Shown: piece after piece, positions 7,670 through 58,508 of the stretch
How positions within the stretch are numbered: the first letter of the stretch is position 1
Layout of the letters: each line of letters starts with the position of its first letter
Assembly: GCA_963845755.1 (NCBI GenBank)
Contig: CAWJTV010000011.1
Coordinates: 928,001 to 992,000 of the forward strand
From: an uncultured Planctomycetota bacterium
GTDB lineage: Bacteria; Planctomycetota; Planctomycetia; Isosphaerales; Isosphaeraceae
DNA length: 64,000 nucleotides
Reading direction: 5' to 3'
Translations under genes and position numbers: made by a program
The notes under the pieces: generated by a model
Seen by the model: the letters and a program-made list of their open reading frames with translations, nothing else
Told to the model about the DNA's origin: nothing
The model's database searches: none

Positions 7670-10066
7670 ATGCGAGGCTCGAGAGCGATCGCGGCGGCGT
7701 GCGGCGGGACGAGAGCGCCGAACACTCGCATTGCGCATGCCGCCGATTCGGATGGAGGGACCCCCTCATCCGCCCTTCTGGCACCTTCTCCCCGAGGGGG
7801 AGAAGGGGACGCGATCCGTCGCCCTCGCCCCCACGGAGAGAGGGTCGGGGTGAGGGGGCGTGTGCGCAATCCAACCGTGAAGCGATCTGGATCGCCTCAC
7901 ACTGGGGTTGGACACACGCGAAACCCTCTCCCGAAGAACCCCCCGGAACCCCCCCTGCGTAAGGGGGGGACAATTGAGGCGGGAGTGGTCCCTTTCCTGT
8001 CCCCCCCTTACGAAGGGGGGGTTCCGGGGGGTGGATTCGCGCCCCCACAGGGTGTGCGCCATTCAATCGTTAAGCGATCTAATGGAATCGGACTGGTCGT
8101 CGTCGTCGGCCTGATGACGGCCTGGGCGGTCAGTGCCCGCGGTGACGAGCCCGCCGGCAAGCGAGTCGTGTCCCGCTCTGGTGCTGGCCTCGATGGAGGC
8201 TTCCTGGCCGACCTTGTCGCCGATCTTCGAGAATTCGGCTCCGATTGCTGCGTCTTCTGCGGCTGCGTCTTGCTGGAGACCGACGAATACGACAAGGCGA
8301 TCGCCGCCTTCAACGCGGCCATCCGCCTCGATCCTCAGAACGCCGAGGCCTACACTGATCGCGGCTTTGCATGGTTTCAGAAGAACGAGCTGGACAAAGC
8401 GATTGCCGATCTGAATGAGGCCATCCGCCTCGATCCCCAGGTGGACGGAGCACACGCGAATCGCGCCGTCATCTGGTCGGTGAAGAAGGAGTATGACAAG
8501 GCCATCGCGGACTACTCGGAGGCCATCCGACGGGATCCGCGCGACGCTGCCGCCTATGCCGGTCGGGGAAGCGCATGGGGGAACAAAGGTCAGTACAACC
8601 GAGCCATCACTGATTACAAGGAGGCGATTCGGATCGATCCGCACCTCGCCACGGCCTACATCGGTCGTGGTGCCGCCTGGACGCGGAAGCTCGAGCTGGA
8701 CAAGGCCTTGATCGATCTGAATGAGGCCATCCGCCTCGATCCCCAGGACACACTCGCTTTCATCAACCGGGCCGAACTCTGGAGGGCGAAGAGTGAATTC
8801 GACCGGGCCATCGCCGATCTCACCGAGGTCATCCGGCGGGATCCCCGAGCCGCCAAGGCATATGCCGATCGCGGCTGGATCTGGAAGGCCCGCGGTGAGT
8901 ATGCCAAGGCCATCGCGGATTATTCCGAGGTCATTCGCCTCGATCCTCGAGATGCGCGGATGTTCAACAGTCGTGGGATCGCTTGGTATTTCCGGAAAGA
9001 ATACGATCGCGCGATCGCCGATTACACCGAGGCGATTCGCCTGGATCCGCGTTACGCTCAAGCCTACAACAACCGCGGGCTCGTCTGGCAAGTCAAGAAA
9101 GAATTTGACAAGGCCATCGCCGATTTCAACGAGGCGGTGGGCATCGATCCTCGGAACGCCAAAACCTTTGATAGCCGGGGCGAGGTCTGGTTTCAGAAGA
9201 ATGAGTACGACAAGGCGATCGCCGATTTCAACGAGGCGGTCAGGCTTGATCCCCGGCAGATCAGGTCTTACGGAAACCGCGCGTCAACATGGCGCAGAAA
9301 GGGAGAGTACGACAAGGCGATCGCCGACTGGAACGAAATCATCCGCATCGAACCTCAGTCCTCTGGGGCGTATAGTGATCGCGGCGCGGCTTCGATGAAC
9401 CTGGGGAAGATCGACGCGGCGATGGCCGATTTCAACGAGGCCCTGCGGATCGATCCTCGCCACAGCCTGGCCCACAGTAATCGCGGCTTGGCCTGGTGCA
9501 GCAAGGGAGAGTATGACAAGGCTATCGAGGATTGCAACAAGGCTATCCAGCTCGATCCACAATGTTCACTTGCCTACAACAACCGAGGTATTGCCTGGTG
9601 GAGCAAGAAAGAGCGTGATAAAGCCATCGCCGATTACACAACAGCCATTCAACTCGATCCTCGAGATGCCAGAACTTACTACAATCGCGGCATAAGCTGG
9701 CACGACAAGGGCGACTACGACAAGGCCGTCGCGGATTATACAGAAGCGATCCGGCTCAATCCCGGGCATGCTAATGCGCGTAGCGGCGGGGCCTGGATCT
9801 GGGCGACCTGCCCCGACCCGAAATACCGCGACGGCCAGAAGGCCGTCGCGTCGGCGACCAAGGCGTGCGAATTGACCCACTGGAAAGACGCGAATCACCT
9901 CCATACCCTCGCCGCGTCGTACGCTGAAACGGGCGACTTCGAGGCGGCCGTGAAGTGGCAGACCAAGGCCAATGGGCTGTTCGCCGAGGGTAAGGACAAG
10001 ACCGACGGCGAAGCGCGGCTCAAGCTCTACCAGGAGAAGAAGCCGTATCGCGAGACGACACCGTGA
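7670..10066 (+). CDS. TPR protein, paralog 4, with an in-frame MITE insertion in its signal peptide
   Basis: AAGGAGG before ATG 7670 as in the sister genes. ORF is open through 7711-8081, followed by a hydrophobic segment, ARG-DEPAGK, TPR repeats and cap. Confidence 0.85.
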   Translation: MRGSRAIAAACGGTRAPNTRIAHAADSDGGTPSSALLAPSPRGGEGDAIRRPRPHGERVGVRGRVRNPTVKRSGSPHTGVGHTRNPLPKNPPEPPLRKGGTIEAGVVPFLSPPYEGGVPGGGFAPPQGVRHSIVKRSNGIGLVVVVGLMTAWAVSARGDEPAGKRVVSRSGAGLDGGFLADLVADLREFGSDCCVFCGCVLLETDEYDKAIAAFNAAIRLDPQNAEAYTDRGFAWFQKNELDKAIADLNEAIRLDPQVDGAHANRAVIWSVKKEYDKAIADYSEAIRRDPRDAAAYAGRGSAWGNKGQYNRAITDYKEAIRIDPHLATAYIGRGAAWTRKLELDKALIDLNEAIRLDPQDTLAFINRAELWRAKSEFDRAIADLTEVIRRDPRAAKAYADRGWIWKARGEYAKAIADYSEVIRLDPRDARMFNSRGIAWYFRKEYDRAIADYTEAIRLDPRYAQAYNNRGLVWQVKKEFDKAIADFNEAVGIDPRNAKTFDSRGEVWFQKNEYDKAIADFNEAVRLDPRQIRSYGNRASTWRRKGEYDKAIADWNEIIRIEPQSSGAYSDRGAASMNLGKIDAAMADFNEALRIDPRHSLAHSNRGLAWCSKGEYDKAIEDCNKAIQLDPQCSLAYNNRGIAWWSKKERDKAIADYTTAIQLDPRDARTYYNRGISWHDKGDYDKAVADYTEAIRLNPGHANARSGGAWIWATCPDPKYRDGQKAVASATKACELTHWKDANHLHTLAASYAETGDFEAAVKWQTKANGLFAEGKDKTDGEARLKLYQEKKPYRETTP
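7711..8081. mobile_element. Two tandem MITE-like elements (about 7711-7889 and 7888-8081), same end family as 5158-5478
   Basis: Ends GAGAGCGCC...ATTGCGCA / GTGTGCGCAATCCAACCGTGAAGCGATCTG and TGGATCGC... / GTGTGCGCCATTCAATCGTTAAGCGATCTA, with GC-rich hairpins inside. Confidence 0.65.
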
Positions 10067-10096
10067 CACGGCCTGCACGACAAGGAGGATCGACCG

Positions 10097-12121
10097 ATGC
10101 CAGTTTCAAGGACGATTGGGGCGTCGTGCGGACCGGTGTCGATCGCGCGCGTCCTGGTCGTTGTACTGATCGCTGCCGGGGCGGTGGGCGCCCGGGGTGA
10201 CGAGCCGGCGGGCAAGGATTGGGACGGAAAGCTCGTCGTGTCGCGCTCCGATACTCTGACGCTGCGCAACGACCACGGCGCCATGATCGGCACCGGCGAG
10301 AAGGGCCTGTTCTACCGCGTGGAGCGGGTCGAGGGCGGCCGGCTCCGACTCAAGGCCGAGGGGAAGGACCTCAGCGGCTGGGTCGCGGCCAAGGAGATTG
10401 CCGTTCTCCAGCCGCGGGCCCCCACTCCGCCGGCAGGCGCTGCCGGCTTCGCCGGGAGGAGACTCCGGCCCGCCGATATGCCCGAATTGAAAGGCGTGAT
10501 GACCGTGCGCCAGATCTCTGTCGGCTCCCGGTTGCTCGACGCGCGAGAGTACGACAAGGCGATCGCCGAATTCACCGAGGCGATTCTCTGGGATCCTCGG
10601 AACGTCGTGGCGTACACCAATCGCGCCTTCGCCTGGATCCAGAAGAACGAGCTGGATAAAGCACTCGACGATCTGAATGAGGCCATCCGCCTCGATCCCC
10701 AGGATGAGGTCTCGTACAAGAATCGCGCCGGCATCTGGTGGACGAAGAAGGATTATGACAAGGCCATCGCCGATGACTCTCAGGCGATTCGATGCAATCC
10801 GCGGGATGCCGCCACGTACGTCTATCGAGGAAGTGCCTGGGGGAACAAAGGGCAGGCCGACCAGGCCATCGCCGATTACACCGAGGCGATTCGGATCGAT
10901 CCGCATCTCGCCGTGGCCTACTCCGGTCGCGGTGCCGGATGGCTAGCGAAGCGGCAGTTGGACAAGGCCCTGACCGATCTGGATGAGGCGATCCGGCTCG
11001 ATCCCCGGGACACGTTCGCCTTGATCAACCGCGGCGAGGTCCGGCGGAGGAAGAGCCAATTCGACCAGGCCCTCGCCGATTGCTCGGAGGCGATTCGGAT
11101 CGATCCGCATCTCGCCGGGGCCTACCTGAATCGCGCGAGTATCTGGTCGGACAAGAAGGAGTACGAGAAGGCCATCGCCGACCTCACCGAGACCATTCGA
11201 CTCGATCCACGAACGGCCAAGGCGTATGCCGACCGCGGCCGGAACCGGAGCAAGCGCGCCGAGTATGACAAGGCGATCGCCGACTATAGCGAGGCCATTC
11301 ACCTCAATCCTCGCGATGCGGGCCTGTTCAACAGCCGTGCTATGGCGCGATATTTCCGGAAGGAATACGATCCGGCGATCTCCGACTACACGGAGGCCAT
11401 CCGGCTCAGTCCTCGTTACACTCGAGCCTACTACAACCGCGGCCTTACCCACTATAACAAGAGCGATTATGACAAGGCCATCGCGGATTACACGGAGGTC
11501 ATTCGGCTCGATCCTCGATACACTCGAGCCTACCACAGCCGCGGCCTGACCCACTATGACAAGGGCGATTATGACAAGGCGATCGCGGATTACACAGAGG
11601 TCATTCGGCTCGATCCTGGAGATCCCGGTGCCTACTACAATCGCGGCATCAGTTGGCACGACAGGGGCGACTATAACAAGGCCATCGCGGATTACAGTAG
11701 AGCGATCTCACTCAGTCCCAAGGACTACTATTATGCGGATCGTGCCTGGGCGAGACGCGAGAAGAAGGAGTATGCCACAGCCCTCGCCGACTACACAGAA
11801 GCCCTCCGCCTCAATCCCCGTAGTGCTTCCGCCCTTAACGGCCGCGCCTGGATCTGGGCGACCTGCCCCGATGCGAAAAACCGCGATGGCCAGAAGGCCG
11901 TCGAGTCGGCGACCCACGCGTGCGAGCTGGACGATTGGAAAGATGCGAGTCATCTCGACACGCTCGCCTCGGCCTATGCCGAGCGAGCCGACTTTGATGC
12001 GGCCGTGAAGTGGCAGACCAAGGCCAATACGCTATTCACCGAGGGCAAGGAAAAGGCCGAGGGCGAAGCGCGGCTAAGGCTCTACCAGCAGAAGAAGCCT
12101 TATCGCGAGACGGCGCCGTGA
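10097..12121 (+). CDS. Secreted TPR protein, paralog 5
   Basis: AAGGAGG, signal peptide ending ARG-DEPAGK, SH3-like module, TPR repeats and cap. Confidence 0.9.
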   Translation: MPVSRTIGASCGPVSIARVLVVVLIAAGAVGARGDEPAGKDWDGKLVVSRSDTLTLRNDHGAMIGTGEKGLFYRVERVEGGRLRLKAEGKDLSGWVAAKEIAVLQPRAPTPPAGAAGFAGRRLRPADMPELKGVMTVRQISVGSRLLDAREYDKAIAEFTEAILWDPRNVVAYTNRAFAWIQKNELDKALDDLNEAIRLDPQDEVSYKNRAGIWWTKKDYDKAIADDSQAIRCNPRDAATYVYRGSAWGNKGQADQAIADYTEAIRIDPHLAVAYSGRGAGWLAKRQLDKALTDLDEAIRLDPRDTFALINRGEVRRRKSQFDQALADCSEAIRIDPHLAGAYLNRASIWSDKKEYEKAIADLTETIRLDPRTAKAYADRGRNRSKRAEYDKAIADYSEAIHLNPRDAGLFNSRAMARYFRKEYDPAISDYTEAIRLSPRYTRAYYNRGLTHYNKSDYDKAIADYTEVIRLDPRYTRAYHSRGLTHYDKGDYDKAIADYTEVIRLDPGDPGAYYNRGISWHDRGDYNKAIADYSRAISLSPKDYYYADRAWARREKKEYATALADYTEALRLNPRSASALNGRAWIWATCPDAKNRDGQKAVESATHACELDDWKDASHLDTLASAYAERADFDAAVKWQTKANTLFTEGKEKAEGEARLRLYQQKKPYRETAP

Positions 12122-48374: not shown

Positions 48375-51300
48375 ATGGCGAGGGGATCGACCAAAAGCGC
48401 TCTCCGACAGATCCGGACGCTCTTCGAGCTGGGCACGCTCGGCGGGTTGACCGATGGCCAGTTGCTGGAGTTGTTCCTGACGCGGTCAGGGGACGACGCC
48501 GAGGATGCGTTCGCGGCGCTGGTCCATCGGCACGGTCCGATGGTCCTGGGCGTCTGCCGCAGGATGCTGCCCGGCTCGCACGACGCGGAGGACGCATTCC
48601 AGGCGACCTTCCTGATCCTCGCACGGCGGGCCGCCGCGATCGGCCGGCGGGAGCGGTTGGCGAACTGGCTCTATGGCGTCGCAGTCCGGACGGCGAAGGA
48701 GTCGCGGCGTCGGGCGGCGCGGCAGCAGGCGCGGGAAAGGCGGGCGATGGACAGGAACAAGGTCGAGTCGGAGCGGGCCGGAGATTGGGACGACGTGATC
48801 CCGATCCTCGACGAGGAATTGAGCCGTCTGCCGGATCGATACCGAGCCGCGCTGGTGGCCTGTGAGCTGGAGGGCAAGTCGCGTCACGACGCCGCCCAGC
48901 AACTCGGACTTCCCGAGGGGACGCTCTCGACTCACCTGGCGCGCGGCCGGAAGCTGCTGCGCGATCGACTCGTCCAGCGCGGGGTGAGCCTCGGGGTCGG
49001 GGCCTGGGCGGGACTGCCGCGCGGCGCCGCCGAGGCCGCGGTCCCGGACCGGCTGCTCACCTCCACAGTTCATACGGCGCTCGGTCACGCGTCCGGCGGA
49101 GTGGCATCGGGAATGGTTTCGGTAACAGTCACGGCCTTGGCCGAAGGAGTGCTCAAAATGATGATCCTGACCCGGTTGGCTCTGCTGGTTGCGGCTGTCC
49201 TGGGATTCGGCGCGGCGGGCCTGGGCGCGTATGTCGCCTGGGCGGCAGTGCCGTCGCCAAGGGACGAGCCGTCCGGGGCCCCGGTCGCCGTCAAGGCGGA
49301 GGATTCCACGGCCGGCACTCGCCGGGCCCGGGTCCATGGCATCGTCGTCGACGGGGCCGGAGAAGCCGGTTCCCGGGATCACGGTGCGGGTCGCGAACTA
49401 CGACGACCATCAGTCGCGCGGCGTCACGGACCCGTCCGGTCGGTTCGATTTCGCCATCCGGAGCCCTCTGCTCAGAGACACGATGCTTCTCGCCGGCACG
49501 GCCGACCAGTCGCGGCAGGGGTTCTACGCGTACGACTTCTCCGTTGAGGAGACCGAGACGAAACAGCCCGTCACCATCGTGCTCAAACCGAGCCGGGACG
49601 TGGTTGTCCGCGTGACCGACCCGGCGAAATCGCCCGTACCCGGCGCCGCGGTCGAAGCCGTGGCGTCTTTTCGGACCATCGCGACGGCAACGGCGAATAA
49701 CCAGGGGACGACCTTGTTGCGCATCCCCGCCGAGGCGCCCGTCCAGTGGATCATGGCCCTGAAATCGGGTCAGGGGATTCGACTACTTCGAGCATGGCAG
49801 CAAGCTGCAAACAGGTGCCCCGAACGAGGACCTTCCGGCGATGGTCACCCTCGTCCTCGACCGCGCGCGGACCGCCCGCATCCAGGCGGTGGATAGCGCG
49901 GGCAAGCCGCTCGCGGGGATTGGCTTCGTACCGTGGTATTTCCAGAAGCCCGGCAAGCGCGGGGATGCCAACATCGCGGGGGGCGAGATCGTGCAGGTCG
50001 TGACCGACGAGCGCGGGATCGCGACCTTCGACTGGCTGCCGGCGACGACTTCACCCGTCGTCTTCTTCCCACGCACGGAGGGTTACCATGCCCCGTTGCG
50101 GACGATGCTGGAGAAAGGAGCGGCGGACACCACCCTCACCGCGCGATTGCTGCGGATGGAGACGATCCGGGGCCGGGTGATCGGGGCTGACGGGAAGCCC
50201 GCCGCGGGGATCCTGGTCGTGGCGCAGGGGTGCGGACCGGGCTCCGACAACGGCAGCAGCCGGGCTCGAACCGCGGCCGATGGGTCCTACGAGATGACCG
50301 TCAACTCGGACGAGTCGTATGTCGTGACCGTCTCCGACGACGACTGGGCGGCGCCGGGCCACATCGGGGTCATCGTGCCGCGAGGGCCGGCCTGTCGCGG
50401 GGCTCGACTTCCGCCTCGAACGCGGAACCCTGATCCACGGGACCGTGACCATCGGCTCGAAGGGGAGGCCGGCGGAACGACGGAGTCTCTGGCTCCATCA
50501 GAGCGGGGGCGAGCTTCCCAAGGAGTTGCGGGGGAACGACCGGATCTATCATGAAGTGCGGATGGACCGCTATGCGACGACCGACGCGAACGGACGATAC
50601 CGGATCCGGGTCGGGCCCGGGACCTATGGCTTGGGCATCTCGGGTCAGATCGCGCAAGAGACCGTCACAATCAAGAATGAGCCGGAGCTGATCCACGATT
50701 TCCGCATGCCGAGGCTGGAGCGCGGGCCGATTTCCGGGCGGGTCGTCGTCGCCGGGGAGCCCAACCGGGGCATGGCCGGAGCGAAGATCGACGGTGTGAT
50801 CGCCGAGCCACTCGGGGGTCTCGACCTGATCATGGTCGCCGATGCCGAGGGCCGGTTCCGCGCCGAGCGCGAGCTCAAGAAGATGGTCGTCCATGCCAGG
50901 AGTCCCGATGGGTCACTCGGCGGCATCGTCGAGATCAGCGGTGATGATACCGAGATCGAGATCCCGGTCGGACCGACGGCGATCGCGTCGGGGATCATCC
51001 TCGACAAGCACGGCGACCCGATGGCCAACGCATTGCTCAGTTGGGGTCGCCGCGTTCATGCGGGTGACGAGAATGCACCGTTCCGGGACAGCTTCGGCCC
51101 GAAGGTGGTGACGGATGAGGAGGGTCAGTTTGTGCTCCCGGAGCTGGTCGTGGGCCAGGAGTATCGAATCAGCGTTCCTACGGGGAACGATACCTGGAGC
51201 CAGGTCGGCACGGTCTTACCCAGCGAAGCCGTGCACATCGACCTCGGGACACTCCAGGTCGATGCGAACGGCGGGAAACGGGATGCCTCGTCGTTCCGCG

Positions 51301-51768
51301 ACGGCGGGCCGGATGCGGGCGACCTGGCCCCTGGTTTCGATGCGGGTGGACGTTCTCACGGTGCGCGGACCCTCGATGGCCGTCCGCTCAAATTGGCGGA
51401 CTTCCGCGGCAAGTTCGTCCTGCTGGATTTCTGGGCGAGCTGGTGCGGGCCATGTATTTCCGAGATCCCTCAACTCCAGGCGGTCCATGAAGCCTTCGGC
51501 CGGGATTCGCGGTTTGTCATGCTCAGCCTGAGCGTCGACGAGAGGATCGAACGCGCCTCGGCAATTTCAGGAGAAGCGAAAGCTCCCCTGGATGCAGGGT
51601 TTCCTCGGTATGGGCATTCAGGGCGCGATCCCGGACCGCTATGGTGTCCAGGCGATCCCGGCCTTGGTCCTGATCGGCCCCGACGGCAAGATCGTGGCCA
51701 AGGGGATGCGGGCGGAGATCCGGAAAGAGGTCGCCCGCGCCCTATCGGGAAGTCGGAAGGCTGAATAA
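48375..51768 (+). CDS. ECF sigma factor with exported extension ending in a TlpA/thioredoxin domain (several frameshifts)
   Basis: AFAALVHRHGPMV, EDAFQATFLIL, EELSRLPDRYR, TM helix, beta repeats, then LADFRGKFVLLDFWASWCGPC...YGVQAIP...LIGPDGKI. Confidence 0.8.
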
Positions 51769-52211: not shown

Positions 52212-53033
52212 CTAGACCAGCGTGATGAGCACGACCTCGGGGCGGCAGAGGAAGCGGATGGGCGGTGTCACGGTGCCGACGCCCCGAGTGATGAAGACCT
52301 GGGCACACGGGCCTTGAACGAGTCCGTGGAGGTATTTCTGCCCGTACCGCGAGGGGACGACCGGGGCACCGAAGCCGGGCACGATCACCTGGCCACCGTG
52401 GGTATGGCCACTCAGGACCAGCCCAACACGAGGGTCTCGGAGGGTCTCGACAAAGTCCGGGTTGTGCGACAGGAGGAGGACGGCGTCGTCCAGGGTCGCG
52501 TCGCCCATCGCGGCGGGGAGGTCTTGCGAATCCGTCCAGAGATCGCCGACGCCGCAGACCCGCAGCCGGGTCCCGCGGCGCTCGAGCCAGACGCCCCGGT
52601 TATTCAGGTCGGGCAGGTTCGCCTCAGCCAGCGCGGACCGGCTGATGGACGTGAATTCCCGGTTGTCGTGGTTGCCCCGCACTGCGAACCGTCCCAGGGG
52701 AGCTGTCAGCTTGCCCAGCTCGGCAATTCCCGGCTCGATGAAGTCGGCGGAACGGTGCATATAGTCCCCGGCCAGCAGGACCATGTCGGGCCGCAGCGAA
52801 TTGGTCAGCGCGACGACATGCCGGACGTATTCCAGCGGGACGAACGGCCCGTGGTGCACGTCGGCCAGCAGAGCGACGGTCGTCCCCCGGAAGGGTCCAG
52901 GGAGGTTCGGCAGCGCGATCGTTTGCCGCACCACCCCGCACCACCTGGCCTCCAGGAAGGGATAGATCCCGCCAGCCACCGCGCCGCCCGCCGCCACCAG
53001 GCCCACCCGCTTCAGGAACTTGCGTCGATCCAT
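52212..53033 (-). CDS. Metallophosphoesterase (YkuE-like) with a Tat-like leader
   Basis: MDRRKFLK, DVHHG, AGDY, GNHD, SHNPD and SGHTHGGQ motifs. Confidence 0.9.
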   Translation of the reverse strand: MDRRKFLKRVGLVAAGGAVAGGIYPFLEARWCGVVRQTIALPNLPGPFRGTTVALLADVHHGPFVPLEYVRHVVALTNSLRPDMVLLAGDYMHRSADFIEPGIAELGKLTAPLGRFAVRGNHDNREFTSISRSALAEANLPDLNNRGVWLERRGTRLRVCGVGDLWTDSQDLPAAMGDATLDDAVLLLSHNPDFVETLRDPRVGLVLSGHTHGGQVIVPGFGAPVVPSRYGQKYLHGLVQGPCAQVFITRGVGTVTPPIRFLCRPEVVLITLV

Positions 53034-53385
53034 CGATTCCTCCCCGATTCCGGTCGCCCGAAAACACCACGCGCATCGTGTTGGCGTTAGCATGCTGGAA
53101 TTCCATCGAAAAGGCCACCGCAAACGCGACAGGTTCGTGACGCTTCGCGGATCCTCGGGACGATGCATCGCTCTGGAGATGATTGACGCCCCGATGATCT
53201 TACTCTACGATACGCGCTTCCACGATCGAGGTGAAGTAAGTTCGCTTCGGGAAACAGGGTTACGCTCGGTGGTCTGGCGAATCAACCCAGGCGGGTGGCA
53301 CGCATCGTGGTGGTTCGATCATCTCTCTTGCAGCGATTGAAGGGGTAGCTCCCCGAGTCGGACGACCGCACCTGGAGCACTCACG

Positions 53386-54810
53386 ATGGCCGACCGTCCG
53401 TACATCTTCTTCGAACTGACTAATAGCTTGTGCTCGACCTGCCTGCGCAAGGTCGAGGCGAAGGTGATCTTCCAGGAGGGGCGCGTCTACCTGGTCAAGC
53501 ACTGCCCCGAGCACAAGCAGGAAAAAGTCCTGATCTCGACGGACGTCGATTACTACCAGTTCTCGCGGCGTGCGCTCAAGCCGGGCACGATGCCGCGGAA
53601 GTTCAACACGGCGATCGAGCGCGGTTGTCCCTACGACTGTGGGCTCTGTCCCGACCACGAGCAGCACAGTTGCCTGGCGCTGGTCGAGATCACCGACCAC
53701 TGCAACCTGACCTGCCCGATCTGCTACGCCGAGAGTTCGCCGCGTCGCCCGTTGCATCGGTCGCTGGAGCAGATCGCGTTCATGCTCGACTGCGTCGTGC
53801 GGAACGAGGGTCGGCCGGACATCGTGCAGATCTCTGGCGGCGAGCCGACGATCCATCCCGAGTTCTTCGAGGTGCTCGACCTCGCCCGGCAGCGGCCGAT
53901 CAAGCACCTGATGGTCAACACCAACGGCGTGCGCATCGCCCAGGACGCCGAGTTCGTCCGGCGTCTCGGAGCGTACAAGCCGGGCTTCGAGGTGTACCTC
54001 CAGTTCGACTCGCTCGACGCGGTGCCCCAGCAGGCGTTGCGCGGCGCGGACCTGGTCGAGGTCCGCACCCGGGCGCTCGAGCACCTCAACAAGCACGGGA
54101 TCTCGACCACGCTGGTCGTCACGCTCAAGAAAGGGCTCAACGACGACCAGGTCGGCGCGATCATCGATTTCGCGCTGGAGCAGCCGTGCGTCCGCGGGGT
54201 GACGTTCCAGCCGGTGCAGGCCGCCGGACGGATCGAGGGGTTCGACCCGGCGCGCGACCGCTTGACGCTGGGCGAGGTCCGCGCGAGAATCCTCGAACAA
54301 TCGTCCCACTTCCAGCCCAGCGACATCGTGCCGGTCCCTTGCCATCCCGACTGCCTGGCCATGGCCTATGCACTGAAGCTCGGCGGCAAGGTTGTCCCCC
54401 TGACCCAGCTCCTGGACCCCACGACGCTCCTGGAGATGCAGGGCAACACGATCCTCAACGAGCAGGATCCCGAGATGCGCCGGCTCGTCCTCGAATTGTT
54501 CTCGACGTCACACTCGCCCGACTCGTCGGCCTGGACGCTGCGCCAGCTCCTCTGCTGCCTGCCGGAGCTGTCCGTGCCGCAGCAGCTCACCTATGACAAG
54601 ATCTTTCGCGTGTTGATCGTGCAGTTCCTCGACCCGTATAACTTCGACGTCCGCTCGGTGAAGAAGTCGTGCATCCACATCGTCCACCCGGACGGCCGGA
54701 TCATCCCATTTGACACGTATAATTTATTCTATCGCGACACGGTCGCCGCGCGGATGCCCGCGATGCCCTGGAATCAGAGTCTGCCGATCCTGGTCGGAGG
54801 GGTGTCATGA
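53386..54810 (+). CDS. Radical SAM enzyme of the Tes/GDGT-MAS (MJ0619-like) family
   Basis: N-terminal CSTC...CPEH, GCPYDCGLCPDH, CNLTCPIC SAM motif, SGGEPT, YLQFD and C-terminal SCIHIVHPDGRIIPF. Confidence 0.85.
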   Translation: MADRPYIFFELTNSLCSTCLRKVEAKVIFQEGRVYLVKHCPEHKQEKVLISTDVDYYQFSRRALKPGTMPRKFNTAIERGCPYDCGLCPDHEQHSCLALVEITDHCNLTCPICYAESSPRRPLHRSLEQIAFMLDCVVRNEGRPDIVQISGGEPTIHPEFFEVLDLARQRPIKHLMVNTNGVRIAQDAEFVRRLGAYKPGFEVYLQFDSLDAVPQQALRGADLVEVRTRALEHLNKHGISTTLVVTLKKGLNDDQVGAIIDFALEQPCVRGVTFQPVQAAGRIEGFDPARDRLTLGEVRARILEQSSHFQPSDIVPVPCHPDCLAMAYALKLGGKVVPLTQLLDPTTLLEMQGNTILNEQDPEMRRLVLELFSTSHSPDSSAWTLRQLLCCLPELSVPQQLTYDKIFRVLIVQFLDPYNFDVRSVKKSCIHIVHPDGRIIPFDTYNLFYRDTVAARMPAMPWNQSLPILVGGVS

Positions 54811-55124
54811 GCGATGCCCCCCTTGCGCCGGATTGCCGACACTGTGGCGCGGTGAACGACTCCGGTGCCTCGGAATGCTGGCAGTGCCACCGACGGGACT
54901 GGCGGGGCTCCCAAGGCCCCGTCGAGGAATCCCCGGTCTTGGCCTCCGTTCGAGGCGCAGGGGTCGTTGACGGGCGGCCTGGTCCTGATCATCACGATCC
55001 TCTGCGCGGTCGTCGGCCTGGCCTTCCGGGCCAGCCCGTACCTCGGCGCGTGGTCCTGCTCCCGACTCTTGTGATCCTTGCCCTGGCGGTCGCCCTGTTC
55101 ACGATCTGCATGGCATTCGGCTGA
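54807..55124 (+). CDS. Zn-ribbon membrane protein, paralog 1 (compensating frameshifts)
   Basis: CRHCGAVN...CWQCHRRDW, TM segment in the alternative frame, ends LALAVALFTICMAFG. Start overlaps the rSAM stop. Confidence 0.75.
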   Translation: MSDAPLAPDCRHCGAVNDSGASECWQCHRRDWRGSQGPVEESPVLASVRGAGVVDGRPGPDHHDPLRGRRPGLPGQPVPRRVVLLPTLVILALAVALFTICMAFG

Positions 55125-55134
55125 GGCCACCCCG

Positions 55135-55845
55135 ATGAGCACCATTCCCGCATCGCTCCCATCCGACGCATCGCCACTTCCCGGAAGCGAAGACCGCCCG
55201 TGGTACATCGTCGGCCGCTGGCAGGAATACCAGGGCGAGGCGCGGGCGAACCTGCTGCGGCTGGTGGCCGTCGCCGCGTTCTACGTCATCGAGCTGATCA
55301 ATTATTACGGCGTCGATCTGGGCTTCATCCAGCTCCCGAAAGTCAGCGACCTGGCGTTTCACAAGACCGTCACGGCGATCGCCGCGGCCTGGGTCTTGCT
55401 CGGCGTGGGAGTCCACTTCTGGCTGCGACTTCACCTCATGCCCGAGGCGCTGAAGTACGTCTCCACGAGTCTGGACGTCGTGCTCTTGACCCTCCTCCTG
55501 ATGGTCTCCGATGGGCCAAGGAGCCCGATCATCGCTGCCTATTTCCTGATCCCTGCCCTGGCCTGCCTGCGGTTCCAGCTCCGCTTGGTCTGGTTCGCGA
55601 CGATCGCCGCGATGCTCGGCTACGTCTGGCTGCTGGGTTGGGCGGTCTGGATCGAGAGCGTTCGGAACGTCCGCGTGCCGCGATACCACGAGCTGATCTT
55701 CCTGACGGCGCTGGCGATGAGCGGGATCATCCAGGGCCAGGTGATCCGCCGGGTGAAAGCGCTGGCCGCCGAGTATGCGCGCCGCCTGGCCTCCACCGGG
55801 GAGCCAGCTCGACCTGAGTCGAGCCCGGTTGGAGGAACCTCATGA
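55135..55845 (+). CDS. Polytopic membrane protein (about six TM helices)
   Basis: Repeated hydrophobic segments and EARANLLRL. Stop overlaps the next start. Confidence 0.75.
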   Translation: MSTIPASLPSDASPLPGSEDRPWYIVGRWQEYQGEARANLLRLVAVAAFYVIELINYYGVDLGFIQLPKVSDLAFHKTVTAIAAAWVLLGVGVHFWLRLHLMPEALKYVSTSLDVVLLTLLLMVSDGPRSPIIAAYFLIPALACLRFQLRLVWFATIAAMLGYVWLLGWAVWIESVRNVRVPRYHELIFLTALAMSGIIQGQVIRRVKALAAEYARRLASTGEPARPESSPVGGTS

Positions 55846-56201
55846 GCCGGATCGAACCCCGACCGAAACCGGAACCAAAGGGGAGTTGCTGGGACTGCGG
55901 CGCGACCAATTGGGCCGATGCCCGGGGTTGCTGGCTCTGCCACCGCCGCGATTGGAAGTCGGGCGCGATCGCGGCCTCCGTAGGACGCACGGCGGCTGAC
56001 GACGAGCCGACCCCAAAATCGAGAGATCGGGCCGATAAGGCCGCCAGGGTGAGCTCGATCGCATCCACGGTGCTCATCTCTCTAGCCGCGTTTGTCTTTG
56101 TGACGGTCGTCCTACCACTCATGGTCATCGGTTTTGTGACCGTCGCCCTGGTCATCGCCCTGAATCAGTTCTGCTCGGCCCTCACGGCTCACCCGCCTTG
56201 A
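55842..56201 (+). CDS. Zn-ribbon membrane protein, paralog 2
   Basis: CWDCGATN...CWLCHRRDW, ends VALVIALNQFCSALTAHPP. Confidence 0.8.
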   Translation: MSRIEPRPKPEPKGSCWDCGATNWADARGCWLCHRRDWKSGAIAASVGRTAADDEPTPKSRDRADKAARVSSIASTVLISLAAFVFVTVVLPLMVIGFVTVALVIALNQFCSALTAHPP

Positions 56202-56287
56202 TGGCCGGGCTGGGGAGGGCCCGCTTGGCTTCATCCGGAGACCACGAAGACAGCCCGGATCCCTGGTTTGCAGCAACTGAGGTTCCC

Positions 56288-56740
56288 ATGAGTTCCGAGA
56301 AACCGCCGGCTTCCCTGAGATGCTTCGACTGCGGCGCGGAGAACGACCCCGGCGCCTCGGAATGCTGGCTCTGCCATCGGCGGGACTGGCGAGAGGGCTC
56401 CGCGGGCGCCGAGCCGAAGTCCCTCGACTACGCGCCAGATCATCGAACAGCTCCATCGCGAGCGACTCGTGTCGATGACCGGCCGGATTGGTGTGGTCGC
56501 GCTCGGACTAGTGCTGCTCGCAACTCTCGCGGTTGCGCCGGACTGGCCATCGGGCTGGGGATCTTGGCGGTGCTGATCGCCCTCCCGGTCTGGGGTGCCG
56601 GGACGATTACCAAAGGGATGTCGCCGCTGGCCCGATTCTTCGTGACCTTGGTGCTAAGCCTCGTATTCTTAATCCTGCTGGTCGTGGCGCTCTACATCGC
56701 CCTTTATCTCATCTGCATCGCGATGGGCCTGATCGATTAG
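56288..56740 (+). CDS. Zn-ribbon membrane protein, paralog 3 (probable compensating frameshifts near 56460-56540)
   Basis: CFDCGAEN...CWLCHRRDW, ends VALYIALYLICIAMGLID. Confidence 0.78.
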   Translation: MSSEKPPASLRCFDCGAENDPGASECWLCHRRDWREGSAGAEPKSLDYAPDHRTAPSRATRVDDRPDWCGRARTSAARNSRGCAGLAIGLGILAVLIALPVWGAGTITKGMSPLARFFVTLVLSLVFLILLVVALYIALYLICIAMGLID

Positions 56741-56835
56741 AATGGAGCTCGAGAGGCCCCGGGATCACGGGACGAGTTTGACCCTGAGGGATGCCGGCGT
56801 CGGGAAGCGATCCGAAGCGAGAAAGAGTTTCCGCC

Positions 56836-57273
56836 ATGAGCGCCGGGATACCCCAACCGGAACTCCCCTGCTGGCACTGCGGTGCGTGGAACCACCGCGG
56901 CTCGTCGGAGTGCTGGCTGTGCCAGCGCCGGGATTGGAACAAGTCGCCCTTGCTCCCACCGAGGACGGCCGCCCGGTCGCCGCGCGGGCCGCTCTCGACC
57001 ATCGCGGGCCACATGATCTTGATCGCGCTGATCGCCGTGTTCCTGGTCATCTTCATCGCGGCGCCGCCCCTGGCTATCGCCTTGCTGGTTTGTGCCCTGC
57101 CGGCCTGGGCGATCGTCGAGATGAAAGCACGCCGCCGCCGTCGCCGAGGTGACTCGATGTCCGGCATCGAGAGAGCCCTGTGGATCGTCGGTCTGACGAT
57201 CGGGATCCCTATCGTGTTGGCAGTAGCTCTGGCCATCGCCTTGTTCACGTTCTGCGCCTTCATGCAGCGGTAG
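56836..57273 (+). CDS. Zn-ribbon membrane protein, paralog 4
   Basis: CWHCGAWN...CWLCQRRDW, ends VALAIALFTFCAFMQR. Confidence 0.8.
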   Translation: MSAGIPQPELPCWHCGAWNHRGSSECWLCQRRDWNKSPLLPPRTAARSPRGPLSTIAGHMILIALIAVFLVIFIAAPPLAIALLVCALPAWAIVEMKARRRRRRGDSMSGIERALWIVGLTIGIPIVLAVALAIALFTFCAFMQR

Positions 57274-57290
57274 ACGGAGATGAGACACCG

Positions 57291-58508
57291 ATGATCAACC
57301 CGCCGCCTACCCCTGGCCTGGCCTACACCGGGATCATGATCCTGTCGATCGCGACGGCAGTGATCTTGAAGCGCCGGGGCGACCGATCGTTGCCACTGTC
57401 GGCCGCGCAACGGTGGGGGATCGCGCTGGGGGCTTTCTGCGGCGCGATGATCGGCTCGAAGATTCCGTTCGTGCTGGCCGACTGGGAGGGCCTCATCAGC
57501 GGCCGGGCCTGGTTCGACAACGGCAAGACGATCCTGTTCGGCCTGGTCGGGGGTTATTTTGGCGTCGAGCTGGCCAAGGCAATTCTGGGCGTGACGGTCA
57601 AGACGGGGGACAGCTTCGCGGTGCCGGTAGCGGCGGCGGTGGCCGTGGGCCGGCTGGCCTGCTTCGTCGGAGGCTGCTGCTTCGGCAAGCCGACGAGTCT
57701 CCCCTGGGGCGTCGTGTTCCACGATGGCATCCCTCGCCACCCGACGCAGCTCTACGAAGCGGCGTTCCACGCCTCGGCCGCAGTGTTCCTGGCCTGGACC
57801 GAACGCCGGGGACTGTTCCGACTCCAGCGGATCAAGCTCTATTTGATCGCCTACTTGATCTATCGCTTCTTCACCGAGTTCATCCGCCCTGAGCCGGTCA
57901 TCGCCCTGAGCCTGACAGCCTATCAGTGGGGGGCACTGGCCTTGCTCCCGGTTTTCGCCTGGCTCTGGCGGCGCGACGCGGCGCCGCGCTCACTAGAGTT
58001 CGAGGATTTGCTCGCCGCCGTGCGCGGGATTGCCGGCCAGCGAGTGAGATTCCCAGTCCACGACGAGGTCGAGTCGCAGAAGTGGCAGCCGACCGATGAG
58101 GACCGGTGTGCCATCGGGGACTTCCACAACGTCCATCGTGCAGTCTCGCCCCTGGATGGTGAGCCGCACGGGGTCGTACATGGCGGCTTTCTGGTTCTGC
58201 GCCTCCAGTCCGAGCCGATGAATGACACAGGACGGAAGCGCGATCAGCTTCGTACTGGAATCCACCAGCGCGTTGGGAACCCTCACGCGCCGGACATGGT
58301 CGGCGGAGATCAATCCGCGCTCGGCGTCCCAGAGGTCCTTCAAACTCTCGATCGTCGCTTCCGTGAAAACACGCCCCATCGTTTCGGCCTCCATGGACTT
58401 CGCCTCCTTCGATATCAGGCATTCGGACGATCTGGCCCTATGACCATCGTGCTCCAAATTTCACCGAAAGACCAGTCAAGTCCGCGAGATCGGCGAACTG
58501 CGACGTGA
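57291..58508 (+). CDS. Prolipoprotein diacylglyceryl transferase (Lgt)-like protein; domain ends near 57990 and the ORF runs on antisense to the next gene
   Basis: GRLACFVGGCCFGKPTSLPWGV, RHPTQLYE and YRFFTEFIRP motifs. Confidence 0.85.
   Translation: MINPPPTPGLAYTGIMILSIATAVILKRRGDRSLPLSAAQRWGIALGAFCGAMIGSKIPFVLADWEGLISGRAWFDNGKTILFGLVGGYFGVELAKAILGVTVKTGDSFAVPVAAAVAVGRLACFVGGCCFGKPTSLPWGVVFHDGIPRHPTQLYEAAFHASAAVFLAWTERRGLFRLQRIKLYLIAYLIYRFFTEFIRPEPVIALSLTAYQWGALALLPVFAWLWRRDAAPRSLEFEDLLAAVRGIAGQRVRFPVHDEVESQKWQPTDEDRCAIGDFHNVHRAVSPLDGEPHGVVHGGFLVLRLQSEPMNDTGRKRDQLRTGIHQRVGNPHAPDMVGGDQSALGVPEVLQTLDRRFRENTPHRFGLHGLRLLRYQAFGRSGPMTIVLQISPKDQSSPRDRRTAT
57993..58394 (-). CDS. Retropepsin-like aspartyl protease family protein
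   Basis: MGRVFTEATIE...ALVDSSTKLIALP...PVLIGRLPL...DLVVD. The catalytic motif deviates from DTG/DSG. Confidence 0.7.
   Translation of the reverse strand: MEAETMGRVFTEATIESLKDLWDAERGLISADHVRRVRVPNALVDSSTKLIALPSCVIHRLGLEAQNQKAAMYDPVRLTIQGRDCTMDVVEVPDGTPVLIGRLPLLRLDLVVDWESHSLAGNPAHGGEQILEL

Follow-up and report, generated by a model that had tools for sequence, protein, structure and literature searches.

To our knowledge, the prolipoprotein diacylglyceryl transferase Lgt (PF01790; Escherichia coli structures PDB 5AZB and 5AZC) is known only for lipidating the lipobox cysteine of secreted prolipoproteins. In eukaryotic S-acylation by DHHC enzymes, a lipid is attached, as a thioester, to a juxtamembrane cysteine of a polytopic protein that remains uncleaved. 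C-terminal sorting signals, such as those of the LPXTG/sortase, PEP-CTERM/exosortase and GlyGly-CTERM/rhombosortase systems, consist of a motif that precedes a membrane helix and a basic tail that follows it, the helix being removed. Here we analyze a stretch of 64,000 nucleotides from the genome of an uncultured planctomycete of the family Isosphaeraceae (assembly GCA_963845755.1, contig CAWJTV010000011.1, positions 928,001 to 992,000 of the forward strand; hereafter the window), in which four tandem genes for small zinc-ribbon proteins with membrane helices, paralogs A to D, lie between the genes for two enzymes, a radical S-adenosylmethionine (SAM) enzyme of the Tes/TrsS clade and a short paralog of Lgt that we denote LgtL. 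Each of the four proteins carries a cysteine at the end of its last membrane helix, and this cysteine is kept in nearly all relatives that are linked to the two enzymes and is absent from most of those that are not.

The combination of these genes bears comparison with each of the systems named above. As in the lipoprotein pathway, the cysteine of the family is preceded by a positively charged loop and a hydrophobic helix and is predicted to be periplasmic in the forms with three or four helices, and LgtL has the LGT fold, with equivalents of R143, R239, Y26, G154 and E243 of E. coli Lgt. Unlike the lipobox cysteine, the family cysteine terminates the third helix, over 100 residues into the protein, with no mature domain after it and in a context that is never a lipobox; in LgtL itself, E151 and N146, and probably H103, are missing, the head domain is reduced, and the NCBIfam cut-offs are not reached. 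Like the archaeal tetraether lipid synthase Tes (GDGT-MAS) and the curated (seleno)protein TrsS, the radical SAM enzyme combines an N-terminal zinc ribbon with a radical SAM core, the match to TrsS being full-length and the match to Tes covering the N-terminal two thirds, but it scores below the cut-offs for both, does not match the C-terminal third of Tes and is always paired here with an Lgt paralog. A lipid placed on a helix-end cysteine of a polytopic protein without cleavage, as predicted here, would resemble DHHC S-acylation, although the enzyme family would be unrelated, the membrane face opposite, and the bond an Lgt-type thioether rather than a thioester. With the C-terminal sorting signals, the locus shares a short signature at a C-terminal membrane helix and a dedicated enzyme encoded nearby, but in the family the helix ends with the cysteine, a basic tail is absent from the short forms, and the conserved cassette includes no protease. 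A sortase- or exosortase-type sorting signal was therefore rejected on anatomy, as judged against the definitions given above.

Four tandem paralogs with a cysteine-ending helix

The four genes are located on the forward strand at positions 54807 to 55124 (A, a 105-residue open reading frame, ORF), 55842 to 56201 (B, 119 residues), 56288 to 56740 (C, 150 residues from the methionine at 56288, within an ORF that starts at 56198) and 56836 to 57273 (D, 145 residues, ORF start at 56791). D represents the best-conserved type, and an identical 145-residue protein is present in the protein collection (P0129). All four are tandem paralogs that consist of an N-terminal four-cysteine zinc ribbon, membrane helices and a cysteine-ending helix. 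The ribbon follows the common pattern C-x2-C-G-A-x-N-x6-C-W-x-C-x-RRDW, with a C-x2-C ... C-x2-C spacing that we take to be RanBP2-like, and yields only sub-threshold Pfam matches, to DUF7577 (score 22.6, cut-off 28) and Zn_Ribbon_1 (14.6, cut-off 25).

The tails read LALAVALFTIC-MAFG in A, VALVIALNQFC-SALTAHPP in B, VALYIALYLIC-IAMGLID in C and VALAIALFTFC-AFMQR in D, exactly as quoted in the initial annotation of this DNA, and the cysteine (codons 55107-55109, 56172-56174, 56714-56716 and 57253-57255, respectively) precedes the stop by 4, 8, 7 and 5 residues, so that the claim made there, of four paralogs sharing a tail motif that ends in a cysteine 4-8 residues before the stop, is borne out. 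In a six-frame translation of the whole 14.3-Mb genome (28.5 million residues), the regular expression [VL]AL.[IV]AL..[IF]C has four matches, all of them in A to D; having been written from the four tails themselves, the expression gauges specificity and gives no independent probability. The possibility that the four tails represent a chance motif was rejected by this genome-wide count. No additional paralog was detected in the genome by a hidden Markov model built from the four proteins; the E-values of the next matches exceed 1.

Retention of the cysteine follows the enzymes

In a MAFFT alignment of 65 family members, all four cysteine ligands of the zinc ribbon are kept in every sequence (65/65), and the helix-end cysteine, found in 58 of the 65, is the top position after these ligands and the start methionine, level with the asparagine of the ribbon. 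Across the phylum, the cysteine is present in 88 of the 94 ORFs that align at this column (15 further fragments or short forms do not align there), and it is present in 39 of the 40 best metagenomic homologs. The conservation in orthologs that the initial annotation presupposed is thus apparent in all these sets.

The ORFs were further divided by their linkage to the two enzymes, the genome groups being set by independent enzyme searches. The enzyme-linked ORFs comprise 65 with the cysteine, 2 with another residue and 22 unaligned fragments or short forms, one ORF possibly being counted twice because one contig is present twice. The ORFs that are unlinked, or come from genomes without detected enzymes, comprise 2 with the cysteine, 16 with another residue (I, L, M, A, N, A, S, V, I, L, G, V, Y, A, T and A) and 10 unaligned. 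Far from being equally common in the absence of the enzymes, the cysteine accordingly occurs in 65/67 aligned linked copies versus 2/18 of the others.

The same pattern is seen when whole genomes are compared. Thirteen Isosphaerales genomes (G007, G023, G024, G054, G055, G056, G065, G066, G067, G110, G111, G112 and G114) encode a full-length family member with neither enzyme detected, and the cysteine is absent in 12 of these (in G007, G065 and G114, as judged by eye). These genomes are relatives and not independent cases, representing roughly six lineages, three of which lie inside genera that also include enzyme-bearing genomes (g37, g7 and g2). In G066 and G067, as in genus g52, the enzymes are gone and the family gene has kept its old neighbors, the genes for the phosphoesterase and SurE. 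Several of the unlinked members share the sequence Y-I-G-P after the ribbon and may derive from one old paralog. The replacement residue varies between lineages and also within g37 (I/V) and g7 (M/A), the A/T difference in g52 resting on an uncertain alignment (MAFFT gave A, V, A), and the loss therefore looks like release from a cysteine-specific constraint. Given all these observations, we are highly confident that the cysteine works together with the enzyme pair.

Sequence context and membrane topology of the cysteine

The initial annotation described the tail as lipobox-like, a comparison that fails: the lipobox [LVI][ASTVI][GAS]C is matched by none of the 149 distinct cysteine contexts. 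The residue at position -1 is bulky or beta-branched, namely I, F, L, V or Y in the short-tail forms and T or V in the long forms, and such residues would make a poor signal peptidase II site. In the proteins of 105-150 residues, the cysteine is residue 101-143 and is followed either by 3-14 residues or by one further helix. In most of the members outside group 1, that is, outside the loci with the gene layout of the window, the chain continues through F-P-x-G and a fourth helix to a basic tail. As judged from these sequences, the conserved feature is a cysteine that ends the helix after an arginine-rich loop, and the C-terminal forms found in the Isosphaeraceae of the window's group are versions truncated 3-14 residues past the cysteine. 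The proposal that the tail is a C-terminal recognition signal for the adjacent Lgt-like enzyme is thus upheld as far as the linkage between the cysteine and the enzymes is concerned (65/67 versus 2/18, as given above), but the signature is not intrinsically C-terminal, as the four-helix relatives run on beyond it. In members from Pirellulales and Lacipirellulaceae (L137, L138, L154, L158, L164, L178, L181 and L203), cysteines occur at i, i+3 and i+6 (F-C-x-F-C-x-x-C) at the helix end, the extra ones lying three and six positions upstream of the conserved cysteine.

Hydropathy segmentation reveals many lysines and arginines in the N-terminal linker, about none in loop 1, 4-7 in loop 2 and 0-1 after the cysteine; in the four-helix forms, the C-terminal tail contains 3-9. 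Because of this positive-inside pattern, we infer that the cysteine is located at the periplasmic membrane interface in the three- and four-helix forms, the zinc ribbon being cytoplasmic. In the AlphaFold2 model of D (predicted local distance difference test, pLDDT, 87.7), helices are formed by residues 56-75, 77-103 and 110-144, and the cysteine stands four residues before the third of these helices ends. Topology prediction, which the initial annotation had suggested for placing the cysteine, thus points to the periplasmic side in the three- and four-helix forms and is ambiguous for A and B.

LgtL, a divergent member of the LGT fold

The gene for LgtL is located at positions 57291 to 57986 of the forward strand, these coordinates covering the conserved part of 232 residues. 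The protein matches the Pfam LGT family with 93.7 bits (cut-off 24.9) and falls below the cut-offs of both NCBIfam equivalogs, TIGR00544 (85 versus 334) and NF000778 (39.5 versus 118.9). Two canonical LGT genes are present elsewhere in the genome (204-206 bits), so that LgtL is a third, divergent copy, and its identification as the housekeeping Lgt was rejected. Its homologs, mostly of about 225-255 residues, are plainly named 'prolipoprotein diacylglyceryl transferase' in the databases. A phmmer search of the PDB with the single LgtL sequence gave no match; a profile of 15 LgtL orthologs matches E. coli Lgt (5azb) with an E-value of 4e-6, and the AlphaFold2 model (pLDDT 85.5) adopts the seven-helix LGT fold, with 5azb as the sole PDB match at E <= 0.001 (E-value 1e-5, TMq 0.62).

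The active site of E. coli Lgt faces the periplasm, the E151A and E151Q mutants, all tested H103 mutants and the R143 and Y26 mutants are inactive, and the HGGL motif is the proposed site of the lipobox peptide, according to the parts of Mao et al. 2016 (PMC4728403) that concern the active site. LgtL retains the catalytic and phosphatidylglycerol-binding residues Y26, R143, G154, R239 and E243 of that enzyme as the invariant Y12, R121, G132, R192 and E196, along with an invariant HPxQLYE stretch and the equivalent of R246, and its periplasmic head domain is much reduced. In addition, LgtL contains a three-cysteine motif, G-R-x-x-C-F-x-x-G-C-C-x-G, that is invariant in 74/74 ORFs and, judging from the helices of the model and the charge distribution, would be located at the periplasmic end of helix 4, on the same side of the membrane as the family cysteine. 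As far as can be judged from the sequence and the model, LgtL is an LGT-fold protein in which the phosphate-binding arginines are kept and the site of donor selection and acceptor binding appears to be rebuilt, and not a canonical Lgt. A two-chain complex prediction of LgtL with residues 50-145 of D, run without controls, gave ipSAE values of 0.01 and 0.00.

In the window, the LgtL ORF has no stop at the position where the orthologs end (about 232-250 residues) and continues for ~170 extra codons (57987-58508). This readthrough is antisense to a minus-strand ORF (57993-58457) that is 57-63% identical in relatives, and the extension is probably due to loss of the stop or to a further indel. No Pfam or NCBIfam match was obtained for the minus-strand ORF at 57993-58394, which at first sight might encode an aspartic protease.

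A four-component cassette in Planctomycetota

The radical SAM enzyme (positions 53386 to 54810, forward strand, 474 residues) carries an N-terminal zinc ribbon of the HMPTM type and matches the Pfam families Radical_SAM (80.8 bits) and Zn_ribbon_HMPTM (59.6 bits); Pfam detects no SPASM or peptide-recognition domain in it. The match to NCBIfam TrsS (NF045646) is full-length (positions 3-433 of 441) and reaches 329 bits against a cut-off of 490, and the match to Tes (NF045702) extends over positions 2-320 of 486 and reaches 293 bits against a cut-off of 450. Orthologs score 324-355 bits against TrsS, and three of them, from other lineages, present the same partial picture below the cut-off against Tes. 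The assignment of the enzyme as the Tes or the TrsS equivalog is ruled out by the two curated cut-offs.

Between A and B lies the gene for a 236-residue polytopic membrane protein, Mem255 (55135 to 55845, forward strand), the fourth component of the cassette. Mem255 has no Pfam or NCBIfam match, and its nearest ESM-Atlas clusters consist of planctomycete hypothetical proteins, 15-48% of the members having PF25323 (6TM_PilS); as a lead only, it could be a PilS-like domain with six transmembrane (TM) helices or a MASE2-like one, that is, a sensor-type membrane domain without an output domain.

The conserved cassette, accordingly, encompasses a PilS-like 6-TM protein, one to seven zinc-ribbon/TM proteins, the Tes/TrsS-like radical SAM enzyme and the short Lgt paralog. 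In group 1, to which the window belongs, the zinc-ribbon/TM genes are located between the two enzymes, and in group 2 the gene for the 6-TM protein comes first, followed by the zinc-ribbon/TM genes and then by those for the radical SAM enzyme and LgtL. Within group 1, the enzymes are 75-96% identical to those of the window, compared with 30-60% for the zinc-ribbon/TM proteins, which come in 1-7 copies, so that the family is the variable, multi-copy part of the four-component cassette. Among 121 Isosphaerales genomes, 38 encode LgtL and 34 an ortholog of the radical SAM enzyme, all 34 being within the 38; the four genomes with LgtL alone represent decayed or contig-edge loci. At two loci, L040 (genome G012) and L123 (G021), the radical SAM gene is a fragment or absent, LgtL contains an internal stop, and the neighboring family genes still encode the cysteine; these may be recent losses.

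In a survey of the phylum with one genome per species, the best 80 of 186 relatives of LgtL all come from Planctomycetota (Isosphaeraceae, Pirellulales, Lacipirellulaceae and Planctomycetales). At the 62 loci, among these 80, that have at least 4.5 kilobases (kb) of upstream sequence, the radical SAM enzyme is found in 53, a family member in 52, both in 50 and the 6-TM protein in 30, and at least one cysteine-bearing copy is present in 50 of the 52 loci with a family member. In Pirellulales and Lacipirellulaceae, the cassette is flanked by fabD/fabG-like genes on one side and ruvB on the other (8-12 of the 80 loci), a case of lineage-specific synteny, so that FabD/FabG and RuvB were rejected as parts of the cassette. 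Cultured carriers include Aquisphaera giovannonii, A. insulae, Tundrisphaera lichenicola and Lacipirellula limnantheis.

Frame shifts in the assembly and flanking genes

Besides the motif, the initial annotation stressed that the middles of the four paralogs differ in length and sequence. In A and C, part of this difference comes from frame shifts: the middle of A seems to be read in the wrong frame in the assembly, and that of C seems to be hit by an indel. A near-identical soil-metagenome contig has an extra C after position 55050, inside A, and likewise after 56537, inside C (in each case a single contig of depth 2-3, otherwise identical over 150 bases); the upstream partner shift of each pair, which would lie at about 54905-54955 in A and about 56440-56490 in C, is covered by no contig. 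In A, frame +1 (ORF 54865-55074) encodes a membrane helix that matches the first helix of an ortholog, and in the orthologs of C two helices precede the basic loop, the shifted region being ~56440-56560. Some of the divergence seen in the middles of A and C is thus artefactual, the ortholog-like helices being encoded out of frame between two shifts. A search of sequencing runs listed no RNA data set, only soil DNA contigs at a small share.

A locus from the genus of the window (L041, genome G046, positions 8208-11736) contains 8-10 family fragments with many frame breaks, next to enzymes that are 96-97% identical to those of the window; the breaks reflect either an inaccurate consensus of long reads or a continuing decay of surplus copies. 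Upstream of the cassette, a gene for a protein with a CarboxypepD_reg domain and a TlpA/ResA-like thioredoxin domain (50445-51764) has an apparent frameshift near its end, the typical thioredoxin C-terminus being encoded in a separate 58-residue ORF (51592-51768); this gene is not kept beside the cassette in relatives. It is followed by a divergently oriented gene for a Tat-signal calcineurin-like phosphoesterase, similar to YaeI/LpxG (52212 to 53168, minus strand), which is syntenic in the Isosphaeraceae group 1 loci only.

Candidate functions of the cassette

We regard A to D as representatives of an unnamed protein family with a cytoplasmic four-cysteine zinc ribbon and two to four helices, one of which, preceded by an arginine-rich cytoplasmic loop, ends in a single conserved cysteine. 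The explanation that we favor, as a tentative one, is that LgtL S-lipidates this cysteine at the periplasmic interface and that the Tes-like enzyme then carries out chemistry on the lipid tails. Under this scheme, the family thiol of the three- and four-helix forms would be placed at the periplasmic membrane interface, where it would meet the arginine, tyrosine and glutamate residues and the three-cysteine motif of LgtL, predicted to lie at the periplasmic ends of helices 4 and 6. LgtL would put a glycerolipid moiety on the cysteine, forming a thioether as Lgt does, without a cleavage of the signal-peptide type, and the Tes-like radical enzyme would subsequently work on the lipid tails. Three features favor S-lipidation: LgtL has the LGT fold and keeps its arginines, enzyme motif and cysteine are predicted on the same side of the membrane, and the family is as numerous and divergent as a substrate would be, with 1-7 copies at 30-60% identity versus 75-96% for the enzymes. 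An extension of this scheme, which we consider unlikely as it stands, is that the cassette tethers a glycerolipid to the cysteine of polytopic carriers at the outer face of the inner membrane, and the Tes-like enzyme welds its tails to lipids of the opposite leaflet, which would produce protein-anchored membrane-spanning lipids.

A number of observations weigh against S-lipidation by LgtL. The signature-motif residues N146 and E151 of E. coli Lgt are replaced in LgtL by C124 and C129, invariantly (74/74 ORFs), and H103 of the HGGL motif is probably replaced by Val or Leu, in a weakly aligned stretch (7.8 bits); because of these replacements, canonical Lgt chemistry cannot be assumed for LgtL. 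The complete absence of lipobox contexts points in the same direction, and if both hydrophobic segments of A and B span the membrane, these two-segment proteins would place the cysteine in the cytoplasm. Phyletic data cannot assign the cysteine to LgtL or to the radical SAM enzyme, because the two enzymes co-occur. At 7 of the 62 LgtL loci (L167, L183, L184, L192, L198, L199 and L200; LgtL paralogs 58-62% identical), neither partner is found within 4.5-6 kb upstream. Two enzyme-linked copies lack the cysteine (R in G031 and W in G072), G054 retains it without detected enzymes, and six of the 13 genomes of that kind are only 54-89% complete.

The best of the competing explanations, to which we assign a low but appreciable probability, is that the family proteins are not substrates but subunits, their cysteine and the three cysteines of LgtL together binding a metal or relaying thiol/disulfide exchange at the periplasmic interface, and the enzyme pair would act on free membrane lipids. 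Three cysteines plus one make a set of four ligands, the three-cysteine motif takes the place of the positions (N146 and E151) that recognize phosphatidylglycerol, without exception among the 74 ORFs, and the Pirellulales proteins have their extra cysteines (i, i+3, i+6) on the same helix end. The co-loss pattern fits a subunit as well as it fits a substrate, and Tes homologues of Planctomycetota are treated as candidate lipid enzymes in one paper (PMC11868695). Enzyme subunits, however, are usually single-copy and evolve at the rate of the enzyme, which is not what the copy numbers and identities of this family indicate (1-7 copies, 30-60% versus 75-96%), and the extra cysteines are lineage-specific.

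Somewhat less probable is that the cysteine is the target of the radical SAM enzyme, which could, for example, methylate it or join it to a carbon of a lipid or peptide by a thioether or another C-S bond; the zinc ribbon would then be a cytoplasmic handle for recognition of the multi-copy precursors by this enzyme, and LgtL would have a separate lipid role. Small, divergent, cysteine-bearing genes beside a radical SAM enzyme are the usual layout of peptide maturases, which counts in favor of this explanation, and the linkage of the family to this enzyme is as tight as that to LgtL (all 34 genomes with the enzyme also have LgtL; 53 of the 62 loci). The cytoplasmic cysteine that A and B would have, if both segments span, also fits. 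Against it, the cysteine appears to lie on the non-cytoplasmic side in the majority of the family, the three- and four-helix forms, and the enzyme belongs to the Tes/HMPTM/TrsS clade and, by Pfam, is devoid of the SPASM or peptide-recognition domain. The least probable explanation, and in our estimation a poor one, is that the cysteine has no chemical role and is a helix-packing or contact residue for docking onto the membrane proteins of the cassette, or a pattern of shared ancestry; the relatedness of the genomes, the concentration of some losses in the Y-I-G-P subfamily, possibly an old unlinked paralog, and the incompleteness of some genomes without detected enzymes are in its favor, but the replacements are varied even within a lineage (I/V in g37, M/A in g7), the cysteine tops every non-ligand residue save the start methionine, tying with the ribbon asparagine (58/65), and its loss recurs in at least three genera with enzyme-bearing members.

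Implications

In the literature searched, we found no prior description of this cassette. New here are the planctomycete layout with its four components, the form of the cysteine protein that has a zinc ribbon and several helices, the topological reasoning, the negative outcome of the lipobox comparison and the joint loss of cysteine and enzymes. If S-lipidation as outlined above is correct, LgtL would lipidate an internal or C-terminal cysteine of polytopic proteins, which is a route of protein lipidation that would be new for bacteria.

Tes homologues are frequent in metagenome-assembled genomes of Planctomycetota and in other bacteria, and are counted as candidate genes for the branched tetraether lipids that serve as palaeoclimate proxies, although none of them is reported to have been tested (PMC11868695). 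That such a homologue has an Lgt paralog and cysteine proteins as its constant cassette partners changes how Tes-homologue gene counts may be read and offers a concrete candidate substrate. Should protein-anchored membrane-spanning lipids prove to be the product of the cassette, they would explain the role of the abundant Tes homologues of bacteria.

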